Source: Escherichia coli
GTDB taxonomy: Bacteria; Pseudomonadota; Gammaproteobacteria; Enterobacterales; Enterobacteriaceae
Assembly (NCBI RefSeq): GCF_024700885.2
Contig: NZ_CP117016.1
DNA: 64,000 nucleotides
Strand: one strand, 5' to 3'
Part shown: positions 3,930 to 42,033 of the stretch, piece by piece
Position numbering within the stretch: position 1 is the first letter of the stretch
Layout: each line of letters opens with the position of its first letter
Notes under the pieces: generated by a model
The model's database searches: none
What the model was told of the DNA's origin: nothing
Seen by the model: only the letters and a program-made list of their open reading frames with translations
Translations under genes and position numbers: made by a program

Positions 3930-6460
3930 GAGAGGCGGGCTGGACCAGCCTGTTTCAGGCGGTGGCTGAGCCCTTTTCCGGCGCCTGGCAGCAGGGCGTG
4001 AAAGCCGATCCTGAAGCCGTCCTCTCCTTTCATGCGGTGTTTGCATGTATTTCGCTGATATCCCAGGATATCGCCAAAATGCGGCTGCGTCTTATGCAGA
4101 CGGATGCGCATGGGATACGCAGGGAAACGCGCCGGGGGGATATTGCCCGCCTCTGTCGTCGTCCCAACGCCCAGCAGAACCGCATCCAGTTTTTTGAACT
4201 GTGGCTGAACGCCAAACTGCGTCACGGCAATACGGTGGTGCTGAAAATCCGTAATGCCCGGGGGCAGATCAAAGAACTGCGTATTCTGGACTGGAGCCGG
4301 GTTGAACCTCTGGTGGCGGATGACGGCGAGGTGTTCTACCGCATCACGCCGGACCGGAACTGCGGGATCACGGAGGCGGTGACGGTGCCTGCCCGGGAAG
4401 TGATCCACGACCGGTTTAACTGTTTTTTTCATCCGCTTATAGGATTGCCGCCGGTGTATGCCGCCGGGCTGGCGGCCACGCAGGGGCATCATATTCAGGA
4501 AAATTCGACGTCTTTTTTCAGAAATGGTGGCAGGCCGTCCGGGGTGATTGAGATCCCCGGCAGTATTACGGAAGAAAATGCGAAAAAACTGAAGAGCAAC
4601 TGGGACAGCGGGTATACAGGCGAAAATGCGGGGAAAACGGCCATTCTGAGCAACGGGGCAAAATACAACCCCACGACGTTTTCACCTGTGGATGCGCAGA
4701 CGGTGGAACAACTGAAGATGACCGCTGAAATTGTCTGTTCGGTGTTCCGTGTCCCGGCCTACAAGATTGGCGTGGGACAACCGCCTTCCAGTGACAACGT
4801 GGAGGCGCTGGAGCAGCAGTATTATTCCCAGTGCCTGCAGACGCTGATTGAGTCCATTGAACTGTTACTGGATGAGGCGCTGGAAACGGGGGAAAACGAG
4901 AGTACAGAATTTGATGTCACCACGCTGCTGAGAATGGACAGTGAGCGGCGCATGAAAACGCTGGGGGATGCGGTGAAAAATACGCTTCTCACGCCCAATG
5001 AGGCCCGTAAACGGGAGAACCTGCCGCCCCTGGCCGGCGGTGATGCACTGTATCTTCAGCAGCAGAACTACAGTCTGGAGGCGCTGTCCCGTCGTGATGC
5101 CCGTGAGGATCCGTTCTCGTCTGCCGGGAAAACAGTTTCATCACAGCTGCCTGACGGCGCATCTGACGGTAATAAGGCAATCAGTGAAACAGAGCATGAT
5201 GCGGTGAAAGCGATGTTCAGGGGGGATACTGAGAAAATGACGGAACGGGAACTGTCCATTATTCGTGCACTGGGAGAAGAATTCTCCACAGTGCTGGCGG
5301 ATTTACAGCGCACATTTGAGGGGAAGATGGCCTCGCAGGCACAAGCGTTTGAAGAGAAACTGACTTCCCTGTCGGCGGTATTACAGAAGCATGTGACGGT
5401 GGATGAGGTGCGTCCGGTTCTGCAGGCGATGGTGGATGACGCTGTGGGGGCCATTCCGGTACCGCGTGATGGTCGTGATTATGATCCGGATGTACTGCAG
5501 CAGGCGGTGAATGATGCGGTCGCAAATATTCCGCAGCCGGCGGACGGTAAAAGTCTCACCCCGGATGATGTGCGTCCGATGCTTGAACAGATGGTGAAGG
5601 AGGCTGTAAGCCATATCCCTGTTCCGCGTGATGGTCGTGACTACGATCCGGAAGTACTGCAGAAGGCGGTGAATGATGCGGTCGCAAATATTCCGCAGCC
5701 GGCGGACGGTAAAAGTCTCACCCCGGATGATGTGCGTCCGATGCTTGAACAGATGGTGAAGGAGGCTGTAAGCCATATCCCTGTTCCGCGCGACGGTCGT
5801 GACTATGATCCCGATGTTCTGCAGAAGGCGGTGAATGATGCGGTCGCAAATATTCCGCAGCCGGCAGACGGTAAAAGTCTCACCCCGGATGATGTGCGTC
5901 CGATGCTTGAACAGATGGTGAAGGAGGCGGTAAGCCATATTCATGTTCCGCGTGATGGTCGTGACTACGATCCGGATGTTCTGCAGAAGGCGGTTCTGGA
6001 TGCGGTGAGTGCCCTGCCGGCTCCGCAGGACGGGCGTGATGCCACGGCTCTGGAAATACTCCCCGCCATTGACGATCAAAAATCCTTTCCCCGGGGCACG
6101 TATGCCACACACCAGGGCGGACTCTGGCGGGCGTATGAAAAAACGCACGGGATGCGGGGATGGGAATGCCTGGTTGACGGGGTGGCGGATATTGACGTCA
6201 GCATGACGGGTGAGCGGTTGTTCTCTGTGGTGGTCCGGCAGAGCAGTGGCCAGCGTACGGAAAAAACATTTTCCCTGCCGGTGATGCTCTACCGCGGTGT
6301 GTTCAGAGCCGGTGAAACCTACCACCCCGGCGATACGGTGACGTGGGGGGGCTCGCTGTGGCACTGCAACAGTATGACCGAAGATAAACCCGGAGAAGCT
6401 CATTCATCAGCCTGGACCCTGGCTGCAAAACGTGGGCGGGATGCAGGAGGCGGAAAATGA
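3875..6460 (+). CDS. Portal protein (HK97 family) with about 465-aa C-terminal extension containing tandem repeats
   Basis: Residues about 40-400 align to HK97-type portal motifs (FHAVFACISLISQDIA, RRPNAQQNRIQFFELWLNAKLRHGNTVVL, FFRNGGRPSGVIEIPGSITEENAKKLKSNWDSGYTGENAGKTAILSNGAKYNP, NEARKRENLPPLAGGDALYLQ); the ORF continues uninterrupted for another about 465 codons. Start codon uncertain. Confidence 0.8.
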   Translation: MWNLLRRTRKNQKSGRDVREAGWTSLFQAVAEPFSGAWQQGVKADPEAVLSFHAVFACISLISQDIAKMRLRLMQTDAHGIRRETRRGDIARLCRRPNAQQNRIQFFELWLNAKLRHGNTVVLKIRNARGQIKELRILDWSRVEPLVADDGEVFYRITPDRNCGITEAVTVPAREVIHDRFNCFFHPLIGLPPVYAAGLAATQGHHIQENSTSFFRNGGRPSGVIEIPGSITEENAKKLKSNWDSGYTGENAGKTAILSNGAKYNPTTFSPVDAQTVEQLKMTAEIVCSVFRVPAYKIGVGQPPSSDNVEALEQQYYSQCLQTLIESIELLLDEALETGENESTEFDVTTLLRMDSERRMKTLGDAVKNTLLTPNEARKRENLPPLAGGDALYLQQQNYSLEALSRRDAREDPFSSAGKTVSSQLPDGASDGNKAISETEHDAVKAMFRGDTEKMTERELSIIRALGEEFSTVLADLQRTFEGKMASQAQAFEEKLTSLSAVLQKHVTVDEVRPVLQAMVDDAVGAIPVPRDGRDYDPDVLQQAVNDAVANIPQPADGKSLTPDDVRPMLEQMVKEAVSHIPVPRDGRDYDPEVLQKAVNDAVANIPQPADGKSLTPDDVRPMLEQMVKEAVSHIPVPRDGRDYDPDVLQKAVNDAVANIPQPADGKSLTPDDVRPMLEQMVKEAVSHIHVPRDGRDYDPDVLQKAVLDAVSALPAPQDGRDATALEILPAIDDQKSFPRGTYATHQGGLWRAYEKTHGMRGWECLVDGVADIDVSMTGERLFSVVVRQSSGQRTEKTFSLPVMLYRGVFRAGETYHPGDTVTWGGSLWHCNSMTEDKPGEAHSSAWTLAAKRGRDAGGGK
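5399..6046 (+). repeat. In-frame tandem repeat array, period 162 bp (54 aa), about 4 copies, inside the portal gene 3' extension
   Basis: Unit ccggatgatgtgcgtccgatgcttgaacagatggtgaaggaggc... recurs at 5561, 5723 and 5885 with near-identity; a diverged copy precedes and a partial copy follows. Confidence 0.9.
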
Positions 6461-22517: not shown

Positions 22518-23051
22518 ATGATGCACTTAAAGAACATAAAAGCGGGTAATGCTAAAACACTGGAACAGTATGAGTTAACAAAGAAACACGGAGTTATCTG
22601 GCTTTACTCTGAGGACGAAAAAAACTGGTATGAGGAAGTGAAAAACTTTCAGCCAGACACCATAAAGATTGTTTACGATGAAAATAATATTATTGTTGCC
22701 ATAACCAAAGATGCCTCCACACTTAACCCTGAAGGTTATAGCGTCGTTGAGATTCCTGATATTACCGCCAACCGGCGTGCTGACGACTCAGGTAAATGGA
22801 TGTTTAAAGATGGCGCAGTCATTAAACGTGTATATACCGAAGAAGAGTTGCGCCTACAGACGGAAAACCAGAAAAAAATATTATTACAGCAGGCCAGAGA
22901 AAAAACGCAGTTCTGGCAAACACAGCTTACTTTGGGGATTATCACTGATTCAGACAGACAGCAACTGATGAACTGGATGCGATACGTGCAAAAGGTTGAG
23001 ACAACTGATACCTCGGTTCTTCCTGTAACATTCCCGGAACCACCAGAATAA
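22518..23051 (+). CDS. tfa: Tail fibre assembly protein Tfa (current orientation)
   Basis: 177-aa ORF starting 1 nt after the stf stop; Tfa-like sequence. Confidence 0.85.
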
Positions 23052-23081
23052 GAAAAGGCCCGTACGGGCCTTAATTTGTTG

Positions 23082-23609
23082 TTATTCTGGTTTCTGTGGC
23101 CATTCAGGCTTTGCAGTATCCACACGGCTGACCATAACGCTGTAGCGTTCCCATGATTCCAGTCGTGTGCGTTCCTCATCAGTTGCCATATTCAGTCTGA
23201 CAGCACGTTCCAGCGGTTGAATCACAGACTCCGCTTCGGAAAGCAAAGCGGCTTTTTGTAACTCTGCCTGCTGTTGCAGTTCCTGTTTTGTATATTCCCG
23301 CTTTACTACTTTACCATCCAGAAACTTCCAGTTTCCCGAGATATCGGCGCGACGGTTGGCTGTTATATTCGGTAACTCAACAACACTTAACCCGTCAGGG
23401 TTAAGTGTTGATACGTCTTTCTCAATACAACGAATAATCCCCTTCTGGTCATAAGCTATTTTTAAAGTATCATCCTGAAAGTTTTTTAATTCGTCATACC
23501 AGTTTTTACCGTCTTCTGTATATAGCCAGATAACGCCAGCTTTTTTCGTAAGCTGATACTGCTCAATGGTTTTGGGGTTTCCGGCGGTAATATTTTTCAG
23601 ATGTTGCAT
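23082..23609 (-). CDS. Alternative tail fibre assembly protein (Tfa') in the invertible segment
   Basis: 175-aa ORF convergent with tfa and paralogous to it ([30 protein letters not shown] vs [30 protein letters not shown]); a shared hairpin aaggcccgtacgggcctt lies between them. Confidence 0.8.
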
Positions 23610-23624
23610 ATATTCTCCTGATGG

Positions 23625-24593
23625 CTATGCCTGTTCAACGTTATACCAGTTACCAGAAATGTATTTTTGTAGTGGTCGTGACACCATCCAGTCATCTCCA
23701 TCAACCTCACCAATAATTTGCAATCCTGTTGTCACATGACCATTACCTGGTTCGCAAAGTCCTCCGCGATATAATGTGTCAGAACGTCTGCCTCCCAGAC
23801 GCACATTTCTGATAAAAGAACTATTCAGGTAATCATTTAAGTTTGAACCCCAGCACCCACCAAATATATTTCCATCGGTGTTATAACGGACGCCACCCGC
23901 AATAAGAGCACCCGGTGAAATAAAGGATTTATCGTTCGGGTTAAACTGCCATAAAGCATCATTACCGCCATCGCCACGCATATGAATACATGGAACCGGA
24001 AATCCATACTGTTCTGTCAGTAAATACCCAAAGCTGACCGCGCCGGGATAGCCCTGTCCATTGCGAATGGACAAGCCCTTAACTATCGGCACGTAATGAC
24101 CACCAGGAGTGGGATTCCAGGCAAACTGCGTCTGAACAAAAGGCGCGGTGGCATTATTCAACTGGTCTGCAAATGCGCCACTTCCATCAGGAATTATTCC
24201 CTGATGAATATATGCAACCCGCTTATAAAAATCAGCAGATGCGGGTTGAAGTCCAAATGCCAGTTGTCCATTTGAATAGAATAAAAGGACACCGTCGCCG
24301 CCCTGTTTAATACCAGTGTCGTTATCTCCGAGAGTAATGGAATTACCGCCCAGTGCGTTATCTGTACCAAGCGCCAGCCCACCATCAATTTTGGCCCCGT
24401 GGCTGACAGATATAGCACCTGTTCTCAGATTTATAGCGAATGGCCTTAATGGGCCTATATCACCGTTTTCGCCTTGTCCTTCAGCCGTCGGAATGAAATG
24501 AAGAAAATCTTCTGAACGACGGAAAATAAGACCGAAGGCATCATTGAAAATTCGCAGCGCATTCACCGTGCCAATTTTCAGTTCTCCGGTCAT
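23625..24593 (-). CDS. Alternative Stf C-terminal (receptor-binding) cassette, silent in this orientation
   Basis: 322-aa minus-strand ORF whose C-terminus (LQKYISGNWYNVEQA) parallels the current Stf C-terminus ([15 protein letters not shown]); reads in frame into the right crossover site. Confidence 0.75.
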   Translation of the reverse strand: MTGELKIGTVNALRIFNDAFGLIFRRSEDFLHFIPTAEGQGENGDIGPLRPFAINLRTGAISVSHGAKIDGGLALGTDNALGGNSITLGDNDTGIKQGGDGVLLFYSNGQLAFGLQPASADFYKRVAYIHQGIIPDGSGAFADQLNNATAPFVQTQFAWNPTPGGHYVPIVKGLSIRNGQGYPGAVSFGYLLTEQYGFPVPCIHMRGDGGNDALWQFNPNDKSFISPGALIAGGVRYNTDGNIFGGCWGSNLNDYLNSSFIRNVRLGGRRSDTLYRGGLCEPGNGHVTTGLQIIGEVDGDDWMVSRPLQKYISGNWYNVEQA

Positions 24594-24664: not shown

Positions 24665-24718
24665 TGGCGGTTTCTGGCCTGTATGGCATGATTTGTGCTT
24701 TTGGACGGGAGATTCAGC

Positions 24719-24901
24719 GTGCTGATTGGCTATGTAAGGGTATCAACAAATGACCAGAATACAGATCTGCAACGAAACGCTCTTGTTTGTGCAGGATATG
24801 AACAAATATTTGAAGATAAATTAAGCGGAACAAGGACAGGCCGACCTGGATTAAAACGTGCTTTAAAGCGCCTTCAAAAAGGTGACGCACTGGTTGTCTG
24901 A
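24719..24901 (+). pseudogene. Truncated serine DNA invertase (Pin/Gin/Hin family), N-terminal about 60 codons only
   Basis: GTG-LIGYVRVSTNDQNTDLQRNALVCAGYEQIFEDKLSGTRTGRPGLKRALKRLQKGDALVV then TGA where family members continue WKLDRLGR; a second in-frame stop follows and similarity is then lost. Confidence 0.85.
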
Positions 24902-24951
24902 AAACTGGACTGACTGGTTCACTGTATGCGGCATCTTGTCGTGCTGGTGGT

Positions 24952-25094
24952 GGAAGCCTGGAAAAAGTATCGGGTGTTGCTGAACCGTGTTGATACATCA
25001 ACTGCACCTGATATTGAGTGGCCTACGAACCCTGTCAGGGAGTAATCATTGGGATTATGCCGCAGCACGTCTTAAGCAAGAACGTGCTGCGGTT
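24952..25094 (+). repeat. Direct repeat copy A: 3' end of a tfa-like gene plus terminator hairpin
   Basis: About 143 bp, roughly 88% identical by eye to 26001..26144; encodes ...[28 protein letters not shown] followed by hairpin ccgcagcacgt...acgtgctgcgg. Confidence 0.85.
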
Positions 25095-25099
25095 GGATG

Positions 25100-25768
25100 C
25101 TATTTTTTCCCTGAAGCGGAAAACATTACTACAGTACCTTGAACCTTGGTTTTAACATTCTCGAAATGCTCTGAGAGTATATGTGTTAAGCCTTCTTCGG
25201 AATCTTTTGTGTTTGAAAAGATGCCTTTCTGATTGTAAATGCGCATCAGTTTTTGACCGAAGCTATTGTGCACAACTCCATCGCCAAGAATTGTGGCTCC
25301 GTATAGAGTTCCATCGTCAGTTAAGGCCTGCGCCGCATTGCGTATTACACAGCTTTTTGTAGATATATTTCCAGGCAGGCAGTGAAGAAGGTAAAACATG
25401 GAAATGGAATCAAATTGACCATGTAACGCCGCGGGATAAGGTTCAAAAACATCATGGCTAATTTTATGTTTAATTTTTGATTCCCCAGCCCTTGTAGATG
25501 CCGCGTTCAGGCTAGCTTCGTTCAAATCCATTAAAGATATCAGACTACTCTCAGGTACGTGAGTAAGGTAAAACCCAGTTCCAACACCAATATCCAGATG
25601 GTTGTTACCTACATGTTCCAGAAAGTGTGGAAGAAGGTGTTCCTTTGTAGGACATCCCCATGCAAGCCGATTTGATACTCCCAAAACCCACCAGTCATAA
25701 AGCTTTAGGGTAAGTGGTGTGTAAATTTTAGCCCCATCATCTGTGTTTTTTTTCATTGATTTCACCAT
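25100..25768 (-). CDS. Class I SAM-dependent methyltransferase (substrate unknown); prophage cargo gene
   Basis: 222-aa ORF with Rossmann SAM-binding motif LDIGVGTGFYL; no DPPY/NPPY or PC-type DNA-methyltransferase motifs seen; appears AT-richer than its surroundings; flanked by the direct repeats. Confidence 0.7.
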   Translation of the reverse strand: MVKSMKKNTDDGAKIYTPLTLKLYDWWVLGVSNRLAWGCPTKEHLLPHFLEHVGNNHLDIGVGTGFYLTHVPESSLISLMDLNEASLNAASTRAGESKIKHKISHDVFEPYPAALHGQFDSISMFYLLHCLPGNISTKSCVIRNAAQALTDDGTLYGATILGDGVVHNSFGQKLMRIYNQKGIFSNTKDSEEGLTHILSEHFENVKTKVQGTVVMFSASGKK

Positions 25769-25824: not shown

Positions 25825-26094
25825 ATGCTGCCGCAGCATAGCGATATTGAAATAGCCTGGTATGCTTCGATACAGCAGGAGCCGAATGGCTGGAAGACCG
25901 TCACCACACAGTTCTACATCCAGGAATTCAGTGAGTATATTGCGCCACTGCAGGATGCTGTAGATCTGGAAATCGCAACGGAGGAAGAAAGATCGTTGCT
26001 GGAGGCATGGAATAAATATCGGGTATTGTTGAATCGTGTTGTTACATCAACTGCACCTGATATTGAGTGGCCTGCAAATCCTGTCAGGGAGTAA
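25825..26094 (+). CDS. Tfa C-terminal-domain-like small protein (89 aa); likely remnant
   Basis: C-terminus [50 protein letters not shown] is the Tfa C-terminal signature; the N-terminus is unrelated. Confidence 0.5.
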
Positions 26095-26144
26095 TCATTG
26101 GGATTATGCCGCAGACACGTCGTATGCAGGAACGTGCTGCGGTT
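26001..26144 (+). repeat. Direct repeat copy B (see 24952..25094)
   Basis: Same tfa 3' end plus hairpin, diverged. Confidence 0.85.
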
Positions 26145-26208: not shown

Positions 26209-26379
26209 ATGGTCCGTCTGCCCCCTGTGGTGATGTCAGCAAAATCAGCCACTGCGCGAACCACAATAGCCCGGGAAGATGCTGAAGATCACCAGGTAAA
26301 GCTATCAGCGCAGAAACTGGAAGAACTGCTCGCATCAATGGTTAAGGATGAGGTTGATCGCAATGATGGGATTTATTGA
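26209..26379 (+). CDS. Hypothetical small protein; may be a decayed gene fragment
   Basis: ORF only (MVRLPPVVMSAKSATARTTIAREDAEDHQVKLSAQKLEELLASMVKDEVDRNDGIY); coiled-coil-like reading continues in another frame after the stop. Confidence 0.15.
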   Translation: MVRLPPVVMSAKSATARTTIAREDAEDHQVKLSAQKLEELLASMVKDEVDRNDGIY

Positions 26380-26691
26380 CGTCAGCGAGAGCAGAAGGAA
26401 GAACTGAATAACCTGAATGATTTACGCTCAATCAGAGCGATGATGATTGGCAGTAATTAGCGGTCAATTTCGGTTTTGTTGGCTGTGCGCTCCCCGCCCA
26501 GCATTGCGCGTCAATTAGCCCCAAAAAAACGAAAAAGTTACAATCAAGTAAAAAATTCCTTCTGCAAAACTAAAAAAGATTTCAATAAAATCAGACAGTT
26601 AAAAACATAAAAAAAAGGTACAAAAAAACATCTCAAAGTCTTGTTTTTTGCTTCAAATACAATTGGTTATTGTGTTTTTTGAAACCTACCA

Positions 26692-26808
26692 GTGTGGTAC
26701 ATGGATATCGATACCACCGCCAATTATAAACTGGGCGGTGCACAGCAACACGATAGCGTACGCCTCGATCCGTGGGTGTTTATGTTCTCAGCAGGATATC
26801 GTTTTTAA
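26692..26808 (+). pseudogene. ompW: 3' remnant of ompW (last about 38 codons) at the prophage-chromosome junction
   Basis: Translates to VWYMDIDTTANYKLGGAQQHDSVRLDPWVFMFSAGYRF*, which I recognise as the OmpW C-terminus; no upstream ompW coding sequence precedes it; in K-12 ompW is the intact neighbour of yciE. Confidence 0.8.
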
Positions 26809-26867
26809 TTCCGCACAAAAACGACCCCGTAATATACGGGGTCAATAAGGACATGGCATAAAGGGTA

Positions 26868-27374
26868 TTATTTCTTCGCTTCTACGCCATCAGTTTCAGA
26901 GCGAATTAAAAATTTCTCAGTTGTTTGCGGAATATGCTGAATCAGCCAGTCGGCCATTTCTTTTTCCTCATTTAAAATCGCTTCGATGGTTGGAATTGAA
27001 GCTGTATCACCGGCATTTTTTGCTGCTGCTAATAGTGAGGTGTAACAGGCGATTTCAAATTGCTCGAAGACATATCCGCTAATAGAGCCTTTGACTATTT
27101 CATCAGAAGGGAATATACCACCGATTGACTGCCCAAGCGCAGCCATTTTACTCATGGAATCTTTAATGACTGAACGTGAAATGTCATTACGATCAAGAAT
27201 AGTTTCCAGTTGAACAATCTGGTTTTTGGTTTCACTAAGATGTTGTTCAATACGAGCGCGTAGTTCAGGATAATTATCTATACGACTAGCCATGGATTCA
27301 AGCATAGATTCGGCTTGCTTTTCCATTGCGTGGGCGTCACGTAACCAGTCATGATAATGTTCAATACGATTCAT
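26868..27374 (-). CDS. yciE: YciE, ferritin-like stress protein
   Basis: 168-aa ORF starting MNRIEHYHDWLRDAHAMEKQAE; matches K-12 YciE; synteny with yciF and yciG. Confidence 0.93.
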   Translation of the reverse strand: MNRIEHYHDWLRDAHAMEKQAESMLESMASRIDNYPELRARIEQHLSETKNQIVQLETILDRNDISRSVIKDSMSKMAALGQSIGGIFPSDEIVKGSISGYVFEQFEIACYTSLLAAAKNAGDTASIPTIEAILNEEKEMADWLIQHIPQTTEKFLIRSETDGVEAKK

Positions 27375-27419
27375 GAAAATGTCCTCTTTATAAAATGACT
27401 AAAAGTTAAAGTTCATATT

Positions 27420-39001: not shown

Positions 39002-39877
39002 ATGAGCGAAAAGCTACAGAAAGTGCTGGCGCGTGCCGGCCACGGTTCTCGCCGTGAAATCGAATCTATTATTGAAGCCGGTCGTGTGAGTGTTGATGGC
39101 AAAATTGCTAAACTCGGCGATCGTGTTGAAATTACCCCTGGATTGAAAATCCGTATCGATGGTCACCTGATTTCGGTACGTGAGTCCGCTGAACAAATTT
39201 GTCGCGTTCTGGCCTATTACAAACCGGAAGGTGAGTTGTGTACCCGTAACGATCCGGAAGGACGTCCAACGGTGTTTGACCGTCTGCCAAAACTGCGTGG
39301 CGCACGCTGGATTGCCGTGGGTCGCCTGGACGTTAATACCTGTGGTCTGCTGCTGTTCACCACCGATGGTGAACTGGCAAACCGTTTAATGCACCCAAGC
39401 CGTGAAGTTGAACGTGAATATGCCGTGCGTGTATTTGGTCAGGTTGACGACGCGAAACTGCGTGATTTGAGTCGTGGCGTGCAGTTGGAAGATGGTCCGG
39501 CAGCCTTTAAAACCATCAAGTTCAGCGGCGGCGAAGGGATCAACCAGTGGTACAACGTTACTCTGACCGAAGGCCGTAACCGTGAAGTTCGTCGTCTTTG
39601 GGAAGCGGTTGGTGTGCAGGTAAGCCGCCTGATTCGTGTTCGTTACGGTGATATCCCACTGCCAAAAGGTCTGCCACGCGGTGGCTGGACGGAGCTGGAC
39701 CTCGCCCAGACTAACTATCTGCGCGAACTGGTGGAGCTACCGCCAGAAACCAGCTCTAAAGTTGCCGTAGAAAAAGACCGTCGTCGTATGAAGGCGAATC
39801 AGATTCGTCGTGCGGTGAAACGTCATAGCCAGGTGAGCGGTGGTCGCCGTTCTGGCGGACGTAATAATAACGGTTAA
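39002..39877 (+). CDS. rluB: 23S rRNA pseudouridine(2605) synthase
   Basis: 291 aa, S4 domain then RsuA-family catalytic motif, Arg/Gly-rich C-terminal tail. Confidence 0.95.
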
Positions 39878-39898
39878 TTTAAGATAAGTATAAAATAA

Positions 39899-39920
39899 AG
39901 GCCCTGCGGGGCCTTTTCTT
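39899..39920 (+). terminator. rluB rho-independent terminator
   Basis: aggccc-tgcg-gggcct followed by tttt. Confidence 0.7.
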
Positions 39921-40046
39921 CATTTGAAGCATGATAAATAGTCGCAGTATTTTAATTTAATTTCATACTTGCTTATGAATAATACCCAGAAATAGCCACG
40001 TTACTATTTAATTATCTGAGATAAACTCAACGTCAAGAGGTGGGTT

Positions 40047-41069
40047 ATGATTAGATATAGTGGAATATTTCTATCGCTGTTAATGCTTTCAGGTTGTGCA
40101 ACCGATGCATTGAAAAATGAACAAGCCGAAACTGTTATTACTGCGGGTAACAAGGCGGTGGCGGCGAATGCAAGTTTCTTTAAACAATACTATGCTTCTC
40201 GTGAAAACTTCCTTGTTAATTTTTATGCGACTAATCCGGAGTGTGCACCTCGACCAGATTATGAGGTAGTTATTGAAAACAGTACCAGTGATGAGTCATT
40301 ATGTCAGCAACCTGGAGATAAGCACAAAAAATCTCAAGAAGATCTTTTTACTACAAAGATAGTCGCTACTGAAAAAGAAAGATTGCTGGCTTCTATGGAA
40401 ATCATTAGCAGTATGAGTTCTTATGTCGAACTTTTGAATGAGGATTTAGATGTTAAAGACAGCAAACAGTTCATATTGCTTAAACAAGCTCTGGATCACG
40501 CGAATAATGCGGGGGCACTTCTGGGCATCAATGGTGGTGGAACATTAACAAAATCTGCAGCAGCGGTTAAAGATTTAGTGGTTTATTTCAATGGGTTGTA
40601 TAATACAAGGGTAAGCGCAGGGAATATAGGTAGTACGGTAAATAAACATTGGCAAAGAATAAAAAATGATCTAACTGATATACGAAACGATATCGCGACA
40701 AAAGGTAAACAAACTGGAAGAAATACCTTTGCGACGGTACATAATAATCTCGTTTATTACAATGCCTCCTTAAAAAAAGGAGGAGGTAATGAATTTAAGA
40801 CATTGAAGAGCAGACAAGAATTCCTGGCTGCGATTATCAGTATTAATGAAACACGTCTTCGTGCAGCAGATCCAGCTATTCCAGCAATACAAGCACTGAA
40901 CTCATTTCTTGACGAGGGAAATCACCTTAAGGATTTATACACTAATAAAATACGCACAGCGGCTGAACAAAAAAGATTAAATGAAATATTACGCGCACAG
41001 GTCATTAGTGGGTTAAAGGCGTCTGAGGGGCTGGCGAAATTACTTATTGCCAGCGGAATAATGTTATAG
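40047..41069 (+). CDS. Hypothetical lipoprotein (340 aa), islet-encoded
   Basis: Signal peptide with lipobox LLMLSGCAT (Cys17); RBS agaggtggg; AT-rich coding sequence; no family recognised; absent from this position in K-12. Confidence 0.6.
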   Translation: MIRYSGIFLSLLMLSGCATDALKNEQAETVITAGNKAVAANASFFKQYYASRENFLVNFYATNPECAPRPDYEVVIENSTSDESLCQQPGDKHKKSQEDLFTTKIVATEKERLLASMEIISSMSSYVELLNEDLDVKDSKQFILLKQALDHANNAGALLGINGGGTLTKSAAAVKDLVVYFNGLYNTRVSAGNIGSTVNKHWQRIKNDLTDIRNDIATKGKQTGRNTFATVHNNLVYYNASLKKGGGNEFKTLKSRQEFLAAIISINETRLRAADPAIPAIQALNSFLDEGNHLKDLYTNKIRTAAEQKRLNEILRAQVISGLKASEGLAKLLIASGIML

Positions 41070-41081
41070 GAGGGGCATTTT

Positions 41082-41390
41082 ATGAACGATGTACAAAACC
41101 GTAGAATACTGGCATTACTTGATATGCTGTATAATACTCTGGGCAACCAAACCACATGCAAGGTTTGTCATAAATATTTTATCCTTATCCTCACGGTGAT
41201 GAACAATCTGACGATTAACTACGGTACTGAAACTTCGCCAGAGTTAAGCGCAATCAGTTATGAAGATGCCAATGCGTTAATTACTGAACTGATATTATTT
41301 ATTGAAGATGTTGACGCTGAGAATCATGAAGCATATCCGGGACATTTGAATGAGATAAAACGGATTCTGAGTTTTGCTATTGCCGCTTGA
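41082..41390 (+). CDS. Hypothetical small protein (102 aa), cotranscribed with the upstream lipoprotein gene
   Basis: ATG 12 nt after the upstream stop, preceded by ggagggg; no signal peptide; acidic C-terminal half; no family recognised. Confidence 0.5.
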   Translation: MNDVQNRRILALLDMLYNTLGNQTTCKVCHKYFILILTVMNNLTINYGTETSPELSAISYEDANALITELILFIEDVDAENHEAYPGHLNEIKRILSFAIAA

Positions 41391-41404
41391 ATATAATTAT
41401 GATT

Positions 41405-41440
41405 AAAGCACCTCAAGAGGCGATCTTTTGAGGTGCTTTC
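41405..41440. terminator. Bidirectional hairpin terminator between the islet and btuR
   Basis: aaagcacctcaagag...cttttgaggtgcttt inverted repeat. Confidence 0.65.
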
Positions 41441-41442
41441 TC

Positions 41443-42033
41443 TTAATAATCAATCCCTATTTGCGCCTTAACACCGGCATCAAACGCATGTTTCACGGGG
41501 CGTAATTCACTCACCGTATCCGCCAATTCAAGAATATCCCGATGACAACCACGACCCGTGATAATCACCGTCTGTTGATGTGGACGTTCATTTAACGCCT
41601 GCACCACTTCTTCCAGTGGCAAATAGTCATACGCCACCATATAAGTTAGCTCATCGAGCAAAACCATATCCAGTGAAGGATCGGCCAGCATTCGTTTGGC
41701 ATGTTGCCAGACTTCACGGCAGGCCGCGGTATCAGATTCGCGATTTTGTGTATCCCAGGTAAAGCCCGTTGCCATCACCTGAAACTCAACGCCATGTGGC
41801 TCCAGTAGATTGCGCTCGCCATTAGGCCAGGTGCCTTTAATAAACTGCACGATACCCACATTTTTGCCATGGCCTACTGCACGAGTTGCCGTACCAAATG
41901 CCGCGGTGGTTTTGCCTTTTCCATTGCCGGTAAAGACGATGATAATACCGCGTTCATCCTGGGACTGAGCCACACGGGCATCTACTTTTTCTTTCACTCG
42001 CTGCTGACGCTGTTGGTAGCGTTCATCACTCAT
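41443..42033 (-). CDS. btuR: Cob(I)yrinic acid a,c-diamide / cobalamin adenosyltransferase
   Basis: 196 aa, P-loop GNGKGKTTAAFG; matches K-12 BtuR. Confidence 0.95.
   Translation of the reverse strand: MSDERYQQRQQRVKEKVDARVAQSQDERGIIIVFTGNGKGKTTAAFGTATRAVGHGKNVGIVQFIKGTWPNGERNLLEPHGVEFQVMATGFTWDTQNRESDTAACREVWQHAKRMLADPSLDMVLLDELTYMVAYDYLPLEEVVQALNERPHQQTVIITGRGCHRDILELADTVSELRPVKHAFDAGVKAQIGIDY

Follow-up and report, generated by a model that had tools for sequence, protein, structure and literature searches.

An orphan ompW 3' end beside yciE as attR of a lambda-like, PPompW-type prophage in Escherichia coli

The ompW gene of Escherichia coli is a documented prophage hotspot, whose attachment site and 3'-end duplication have been defined experimentally before. 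Nakamura et al. (2021, PLoS Pathog, PMC8112680) described PPompW, a lambda-like prophage that resides in ompW and is bounded by a 121-bp attL/R; upon induction with mitomycin C, sequencing of the circularized attP confirmed this 121-bp att sequence. Of 767 complete E. coli genomes in that study, 44% had a PPompW, the phage-borne sequence shared ~81% identity with ompW, and PCR showed excision, circularization, and packaging of the PPompWs of O145:H28 upon induction (PMC8112680). In GenBank records of these prophages (LC567818-LC567841), the 121 bp bear the annotation 'duplication due to insertion of PPompW', and the integrase gene is named intE. Bobay et al. (2013, PMC3603311) listed ompW among the most occupied hotspots and, with icd, among the few protein-coding targets. 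Their wording is readable as disruption of ompW, which does not fit the intact 212-aa open reading frame (ORF) found here. Insertion of PPompW in ompW is already described and very common.

Here, we followed up an original prediction made from the letters of a 64-kb stretch of E. coli DNA (the window), according to which a prophage sits in the 3' end of ompW and a displaced native fragment marks its attR. Our analysis assigns positions 26690-26810, with a probability of about 0.96, to the attR of a lambda-like, PPompW-type prophage that has replaced the ompW 3' end by a phage copy. Behind this reading stand the two junctions with their common core and intact ompW reading frame, the undivided empty site, an attP in one contiguous piece, and the identification of int and xis.

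The two junctions and their common core

The distal junction, attL, lies outside the window and was taken from the public genome of E. coli MLI114 (NZ_CP117013.1). Over its 64 kb, the window matches the reverse complement of that genome except for 1 mismatch (one in positions 1-27690, none in 27290-64000). The link of attR to attL depends on this identity of window and MLI114, one base apart. The differing base, at position 26042, falls in a tail-fiber-assembly remnant and is probably an assembly-version or clonal difference. Features of the window are collected in Table 1.

Table 1. Features at and around the right prophage junction (positions in the window)
Feature	Position	Strand	Remarks
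Right part of the prophage, 26.7 kb of 52.9 kb	1-26689	+	Lambda-like
Conserved A-rich attP arm distal to int (lambda P arm equivalent)	26556-26689	+	Alignment
Arm-type repeat TTCTGCAAAAC	26560-26570	+	1 mismatch to CTCTGCAAAAC; only match in the 64-kb window
Exact common core CAGTGTGGTACATGGATATCGATACCAC, 28 bp	26690-26717	+	Identical in attR, attL, attB, and attP
attR copy of the imperfect 121-bp att duplication	26690-26810	+	96/121 identical to the attL copy (79%), ungapped
Displaced native ompW 3' end	26692-26808	+	ORF, 38 codons plus stop; translation VWYMDIDTTANYKLGGAQQHDSVRLDPWVFMFSAGYRF
Inverted hexamers GTGGTA / TACCAC	26694-26699 / 26712-26717	.	Perfect, 12-bp spacer; direct sequence reading
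Native hairpin GACCCCG-TAATATA-CGGGGTC, between ompW and yciE	26823-26843		Candidate terminator; direct sequence reading
yciE	26868-27374	-	First chromosomal gene past attR

The last 38 codons of ompW stand immediately before yciE as in K-12, a placement on which the ORF, the alignment, and the 59-nt spacing between fragment and yciE, equal to that of K-12, agree. The fragment differs at 1 nucleotide from the ompW 3' end of the K-12 derivative J53. Lacking its own start codon and promoter, it is a pseudogene in the MLI114 annotation and carries the NCBI label of an incomplete OmpW-family pseudogene. The native hairpin that separates ompW from yciE stays with the orphan fragment after integration. 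For comparison with the empty locus, window positions 26300-27400 were used as a megablast query against 5,426 complete E. coli genomes, thousands of which have an empty ompW. These undivided loci match only from query position 391 (26690) rightwards, so that none of the DNA further left belongs to ompW. The segment 26520-26689 is 75% A+T and 47% A, versus 48% A+T for the whole 64-kb window. The claim that the A-rich stretch preceding the fragment is not ompW thus proved correct. The predicted fragment start at 26692 holds for the 38 complete codons and falls short for native homology, which begins 2 nt earlier.

The prophage side of this junction encodes the terminase large subunit, whose gene forms the left edge of the window, as well as capsid, portal, tail, tail tip J, Lom, and tail fibers, followed by tail-fiber accessory remnants; pseudogenes are present in the accessory region of the MLI114 prophage. 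A direct repeat of ~147 bp (24948-25094 and 25997-26144, 90% identical), derived from the 3' end of a tail-fiber-assembly gene, brackets a class I SAM-dependent methyltransferase gene at 25100-25768 (- strand). The arrangement resembles a cargo cassette that entered through a duplication of the tfa end. A truncated serine invertase of 68 aa (24695-24901), reduced to the Resolvase N-terminal domain, adjoins oppositely oriented tail-fiber tip and tfa genes at 22518-24593. Together, they look like a fossil invertible host-range switch of the Pin/Gin type, presumably locked. On the chromosomal side, two adjacent + strand genes (340 aa and 102 aa; 40047-41390) lie between rluB and cobO and are absent from K-12. 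At least 80% of window positions 39700-41700 is present in 488 of the 5,426 complete E. coli genomes, with more diverged versions in others, and neither protein had a Pfam or PADLOC match.

The attL core in MLI114 lies 52,855 bp upstream of the attR core, as calculated from coordinates. Past the window edge, the MLI114 annotation lists lysis, Q-antiterminator, replication, cro, repressor, exonuclease, excisionase, and integrase genes, then an intact ompW, and beyond it yciC, yciB, yciA, and tonB. The gene order of the prophage therefore reads int-xis-exo, repressor/cro, replication, Q-type antiterminator, lysis, terminase, head, tail, J, lom, and tail fibers. At attL, int (376 aa) is convergent with ompW, the stop codons being 45 nt apart, and the xis gene overlaps the int start. 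Int carries a Phage_integrase domain (PF00589, 61 bits) and an N-terminal Arm-DNA-bind_1 domain (PF09003, 78 bits), both above the cut-offs, and Xis belongs to the lambda Exc family (PF07825 Exc, 31.9 bits; cut-off, 23).

Inspection of this end upheld the expectation that ompW is rebuilt there with a phage-derived C-terminus. The 5' part of the gene is fused in frame to a phage 3' end, with int and xis adjoining, and an intact OmpW of 212 aa is annotated at attL. Aligning the two junctions revealed an exact core of 28 bp, the longest exact match between attL and attR, which corresponds to ompW nucleotides 521-548 (codons 174-183). The original prediction had put the core at about 26680-26700, close to its actual location, and made a minor error of 10-17 bp, the exact core being further right. 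With the undivided site of the empty loci as a third sequence, attL equals attB left of the core and attR equals attB right of it, the reciprocal flank pattern that site-specific integration would predict. Reciprocal flanks and the core shared with attL support the predicted insertion of a prophage in the ompW 3' end, with the fragment marking attR. The 121-bp duplication reaches two bases beyond the stop codon, scores 82% identity by BLAST, and is present at the two prophage ends only, the attL copy occupying positions 4736-4856 of the extracted attL stretch (L002). The inverted hexamers in the core are candidate core-type Int sites that may flank the overlap region; we infer this, and the exact cleavage positions, from the sequence.

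The attP arms and competing explanations

An attP of 1,218 bp was rebuilt in silico by fusing the phage-derived flanks of attR and attL. This sequence occurs in one contiguous piece, with 99.5% identity, in Escherichia phage 204576 (CP025907.1), and the int-side 60% of the attP query is matched by 11 PPompW or Stx2a-in-PPompW records. Three tandem copies of CTCTGCAAAAC follow the phage-borne stop codon, beside int (L002 4699-4733). Adding the copy in the distal arm, both attP arms bear arm-type repeats, distinct from the core, which amount to 3 + 1 copies of (C/T)TCTGCAAAAC and are candidate sites that Int would bind. A search allowing up to 3 mismatches returned no further arm-type sites beyond these 3 + 1 copies. 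The attR of an otherwise different ompW prophage of O157:H7 is conserved only from ~26556 to the core, and four megablast matches begin at positions 251-263 of the 26300-27400 query. Arm conservation thus starts at the distal repeat, which would delimit a functional attP of ~300 bp. The strict IHF consensus WATCAANNNNTTR had no match in either attP arm. Both arms are rich in A-tracts, and bending may therefore be intrinsic or rely on degenerate IHF sites. A hairpin with flanking A and U runs (-17 kcal/mol, z = -4.8) follows the arm repeats, between the convergent ompW and int.

The arms also bear on a composite origin of the element. The 52.9 kb might represent tandem prophages or a prophage within a prophage, and position 26690 would then be the attR of an element other than the one whose int flanks ompW. 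Clusters of this kind are documented at ompW (PMC8112680), and the element is longer than the 44-46 kb of PPompW records. However, the attR P arm bears the same arm-type repeat as the int-side arm, the annotation between the ends shows one integrase only and the lambdoid modules in one set only, and no copy of the 121-bp att sequence is internal. Furthermore, the 21-bp attB-in-PP_1, which serves some PPompWs as a landing pad for Stx phages, is absent from the window and the rest of the MLI114 prophage at up to 3 mismatches. We therefore regard a composite element as very improbable.

Less probable still is an origin of the ompW fragment in some deletion or rearrangement unrelated to the prophage, with an intact ompW located separately. 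The fragment taken alone, without attL, and its annotation as an incomplete pseudogene would fit such a history. Nonetheless, its breakpoint coincides to the base with the core common to attL, the attL ompW is chimeric exactly from the core onward, and this rebuilt copy is the sole intact ompW in the region. The contiguity of the rebuilt attP in a phage record and the restriction of the 121-bp sequence to the prophage ends also speak against a relic. Placement of the exchange in the 28-bp block follows from attL having the phage-type middle section and attR the native one. Stretches of 23 and 20 identical bases also stand near the stop codon, at the 3' end of the 121-bp homology (26766-26810), but homologous or site-specific exchange there would have given attL the native and attR the phage-type loop codons. 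The reverse is seen, and such an exchange has a negligible chance of being right.

In our preferred reading, a PPompW-type phage integrated by recombination of its attP with the core in ompW, catalyzed by a tyrosine integrase of the lambda type that has an arm-binding domain at its N-terminus. Right of the core, attP supplies a diverged copy of the last 91 nt of ompW, the three arm-type sites, the hairpin as a terminator, and the convergent int. Since integration, attL consists of the host ompW 5' part and the phage 3' end, yielding a full-length OmpW, and attR retains the A-rich phage arm and the orphaned native 3' end.

The chimeric OmpW and its last loop

The attL ompW keeps the native length, its final 91 nt being phage-derived. 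Its product reaches 402 bits with the NCBIfam OmpW equivalog model (cut-off, 287) and aligns end to end with the solved OmpW structures 2MHL and 2F1T; expression and function of the chimeric protein are predicted. Differences between the native and phage-borne ends are unevenly distributed. All 7 nonsynonymous changes fall within one stretch of 10 residues, ANYKLGGAQQHD in the native protein and AKYKSGVTTVKD in the chimera, and the 9 synonymous codon differences all lie outside ANYKLGGAQQHD, in what are probably strand-forming parts. Both termini of the OmpW beta-barrel are periplasmic, and its last hairpin is joined by the extracellular loop L4. With this topology, the ANYKLGGAQQHD/AKYKSGVTTVKD stretch would be surface exposed as the last loop of the protein.

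The AKYKSGVTTVKD variant also occurs in O157:H7, O55:H7, and ST131 lysogens. A second phage-borne allele was observed in E. coli 2021CK-00607 (L008 31-684), where the loop reads AKYKSDGRKLAKGSYSDNV, 5 aa longer, within a 217-aa OmpW that adjoins a related integrase. When 100,044 species-representative genomes were scanned with degenerate codons for the exact peptide, serine being encoded as TCN, no native ompW with the phage-type loop was found; a scan of this design would miss diverged sources. Its sole match, Escherichia albertii NBRC 107761, belongs to the same phage module. The phage ompW 3' end is identical there and fused in frame to a truncated rlmC (L011 5670-6035, - strand) adjoining potI/potH, next to the same Int with one amino-acid difference. 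The host/phage junction lies at CCAGTG|TGGTAC and represents either a secondary attachment site or a rearrangement. Occurrence of the same Int and ompW end at another locus in E. albertii indicates that the ompW-like end travels with the phage.

It is conceivable, if rather unlikely, that the phage-borne end converts a surface receptor upon lysogeny, i.e., that receptor masking is built into the att site. If so, lysogens could differ in their sensitivity to agents that depend on OmpW, for instance colicin S4 (PMC2649078) or certain phages (PMC10132071). Receptor conversion would fit the clustered changes in the loop and the occurrence of two loop alleles, and neutral capture of the end from an unsampled relative would fit them equally well.

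Comparison with PPompW, e14/icd, and lambda

The MLI114 prophage resembles the PPompW prophages of STEC/EPEC and other E. coli in its ompW site, the imperfect 121-bp att duplication, and the lambda-like gene order. Its Int is identical to IntE of PPompW_132418 (LC567822.1) over 376/376 aa (1127/1131 nt), well inside the >90% identity and coverage used to define PPompW integrases, and xis differs by 1 base. The MLI114 copy departs from the published ones in size (52.9 kb versus ~44-46 kb), in the cargo next to the P arm and the tail-fiber region, as reflected by the 60% of the attP query that they match, and in the lack of attB-in-PP_1. Its host is a human stool isolate from Mali, whereas published hosts include O145:H28. 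Among the 5,426 complete E. coli genomes, 1,714 contain the attL junction (≥80% query coverage) and 609 the right end specific to this window. A phage-encoded OmpW loop is thus carried by about one-third of E. coli genomes. For annotation, an ompW pseudogene beside yciE should be taken as a prophage boundary and not as gene decay; a full-length OmpW with a chimeric end remains encoded in the present strain, at a distance of 52.9 kb.

A comparable arrangement is known at icd, into which the e14 element reportedly integrates, as described by Hill in 1989. Integration of phage 21 into icd is attributed to Wang 1997, as cited in PMC3603311. Like the ompW prophage, e14 and phage 21 enter the 3' end of a protein gene and bring a diverged replacement end that keeps the length of the ORF. 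As with the ompW fragment here, the original 3' end of icd is left at the far junction. They differ in target, icd instead of ompW, and in core and integrase specificity.

The recombination module resembles that of lambda. Shared features are an Int that joins a tyrosine recombinase domain to an N-terminal arm-binding one, an Xis of the Exc family, transcription of int towards att, and an A/T-rich arm. The MLI114 prophage has three tandem repeats on the int side and at least one distal repeat ~120-130 bp from the core. The lambda core is intergenic, between gal and bio, whereas that of the MLI114 prophage lies within coding sequence. Because 91 nt of its int-proximal arm are coding, the three arm sites stand ~95-140 bp away from the core; those of lambda are nearer. 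In mechanistic terms, a lambda-type Int/Xis module here performs an integration that follows the e14/icd pattern.
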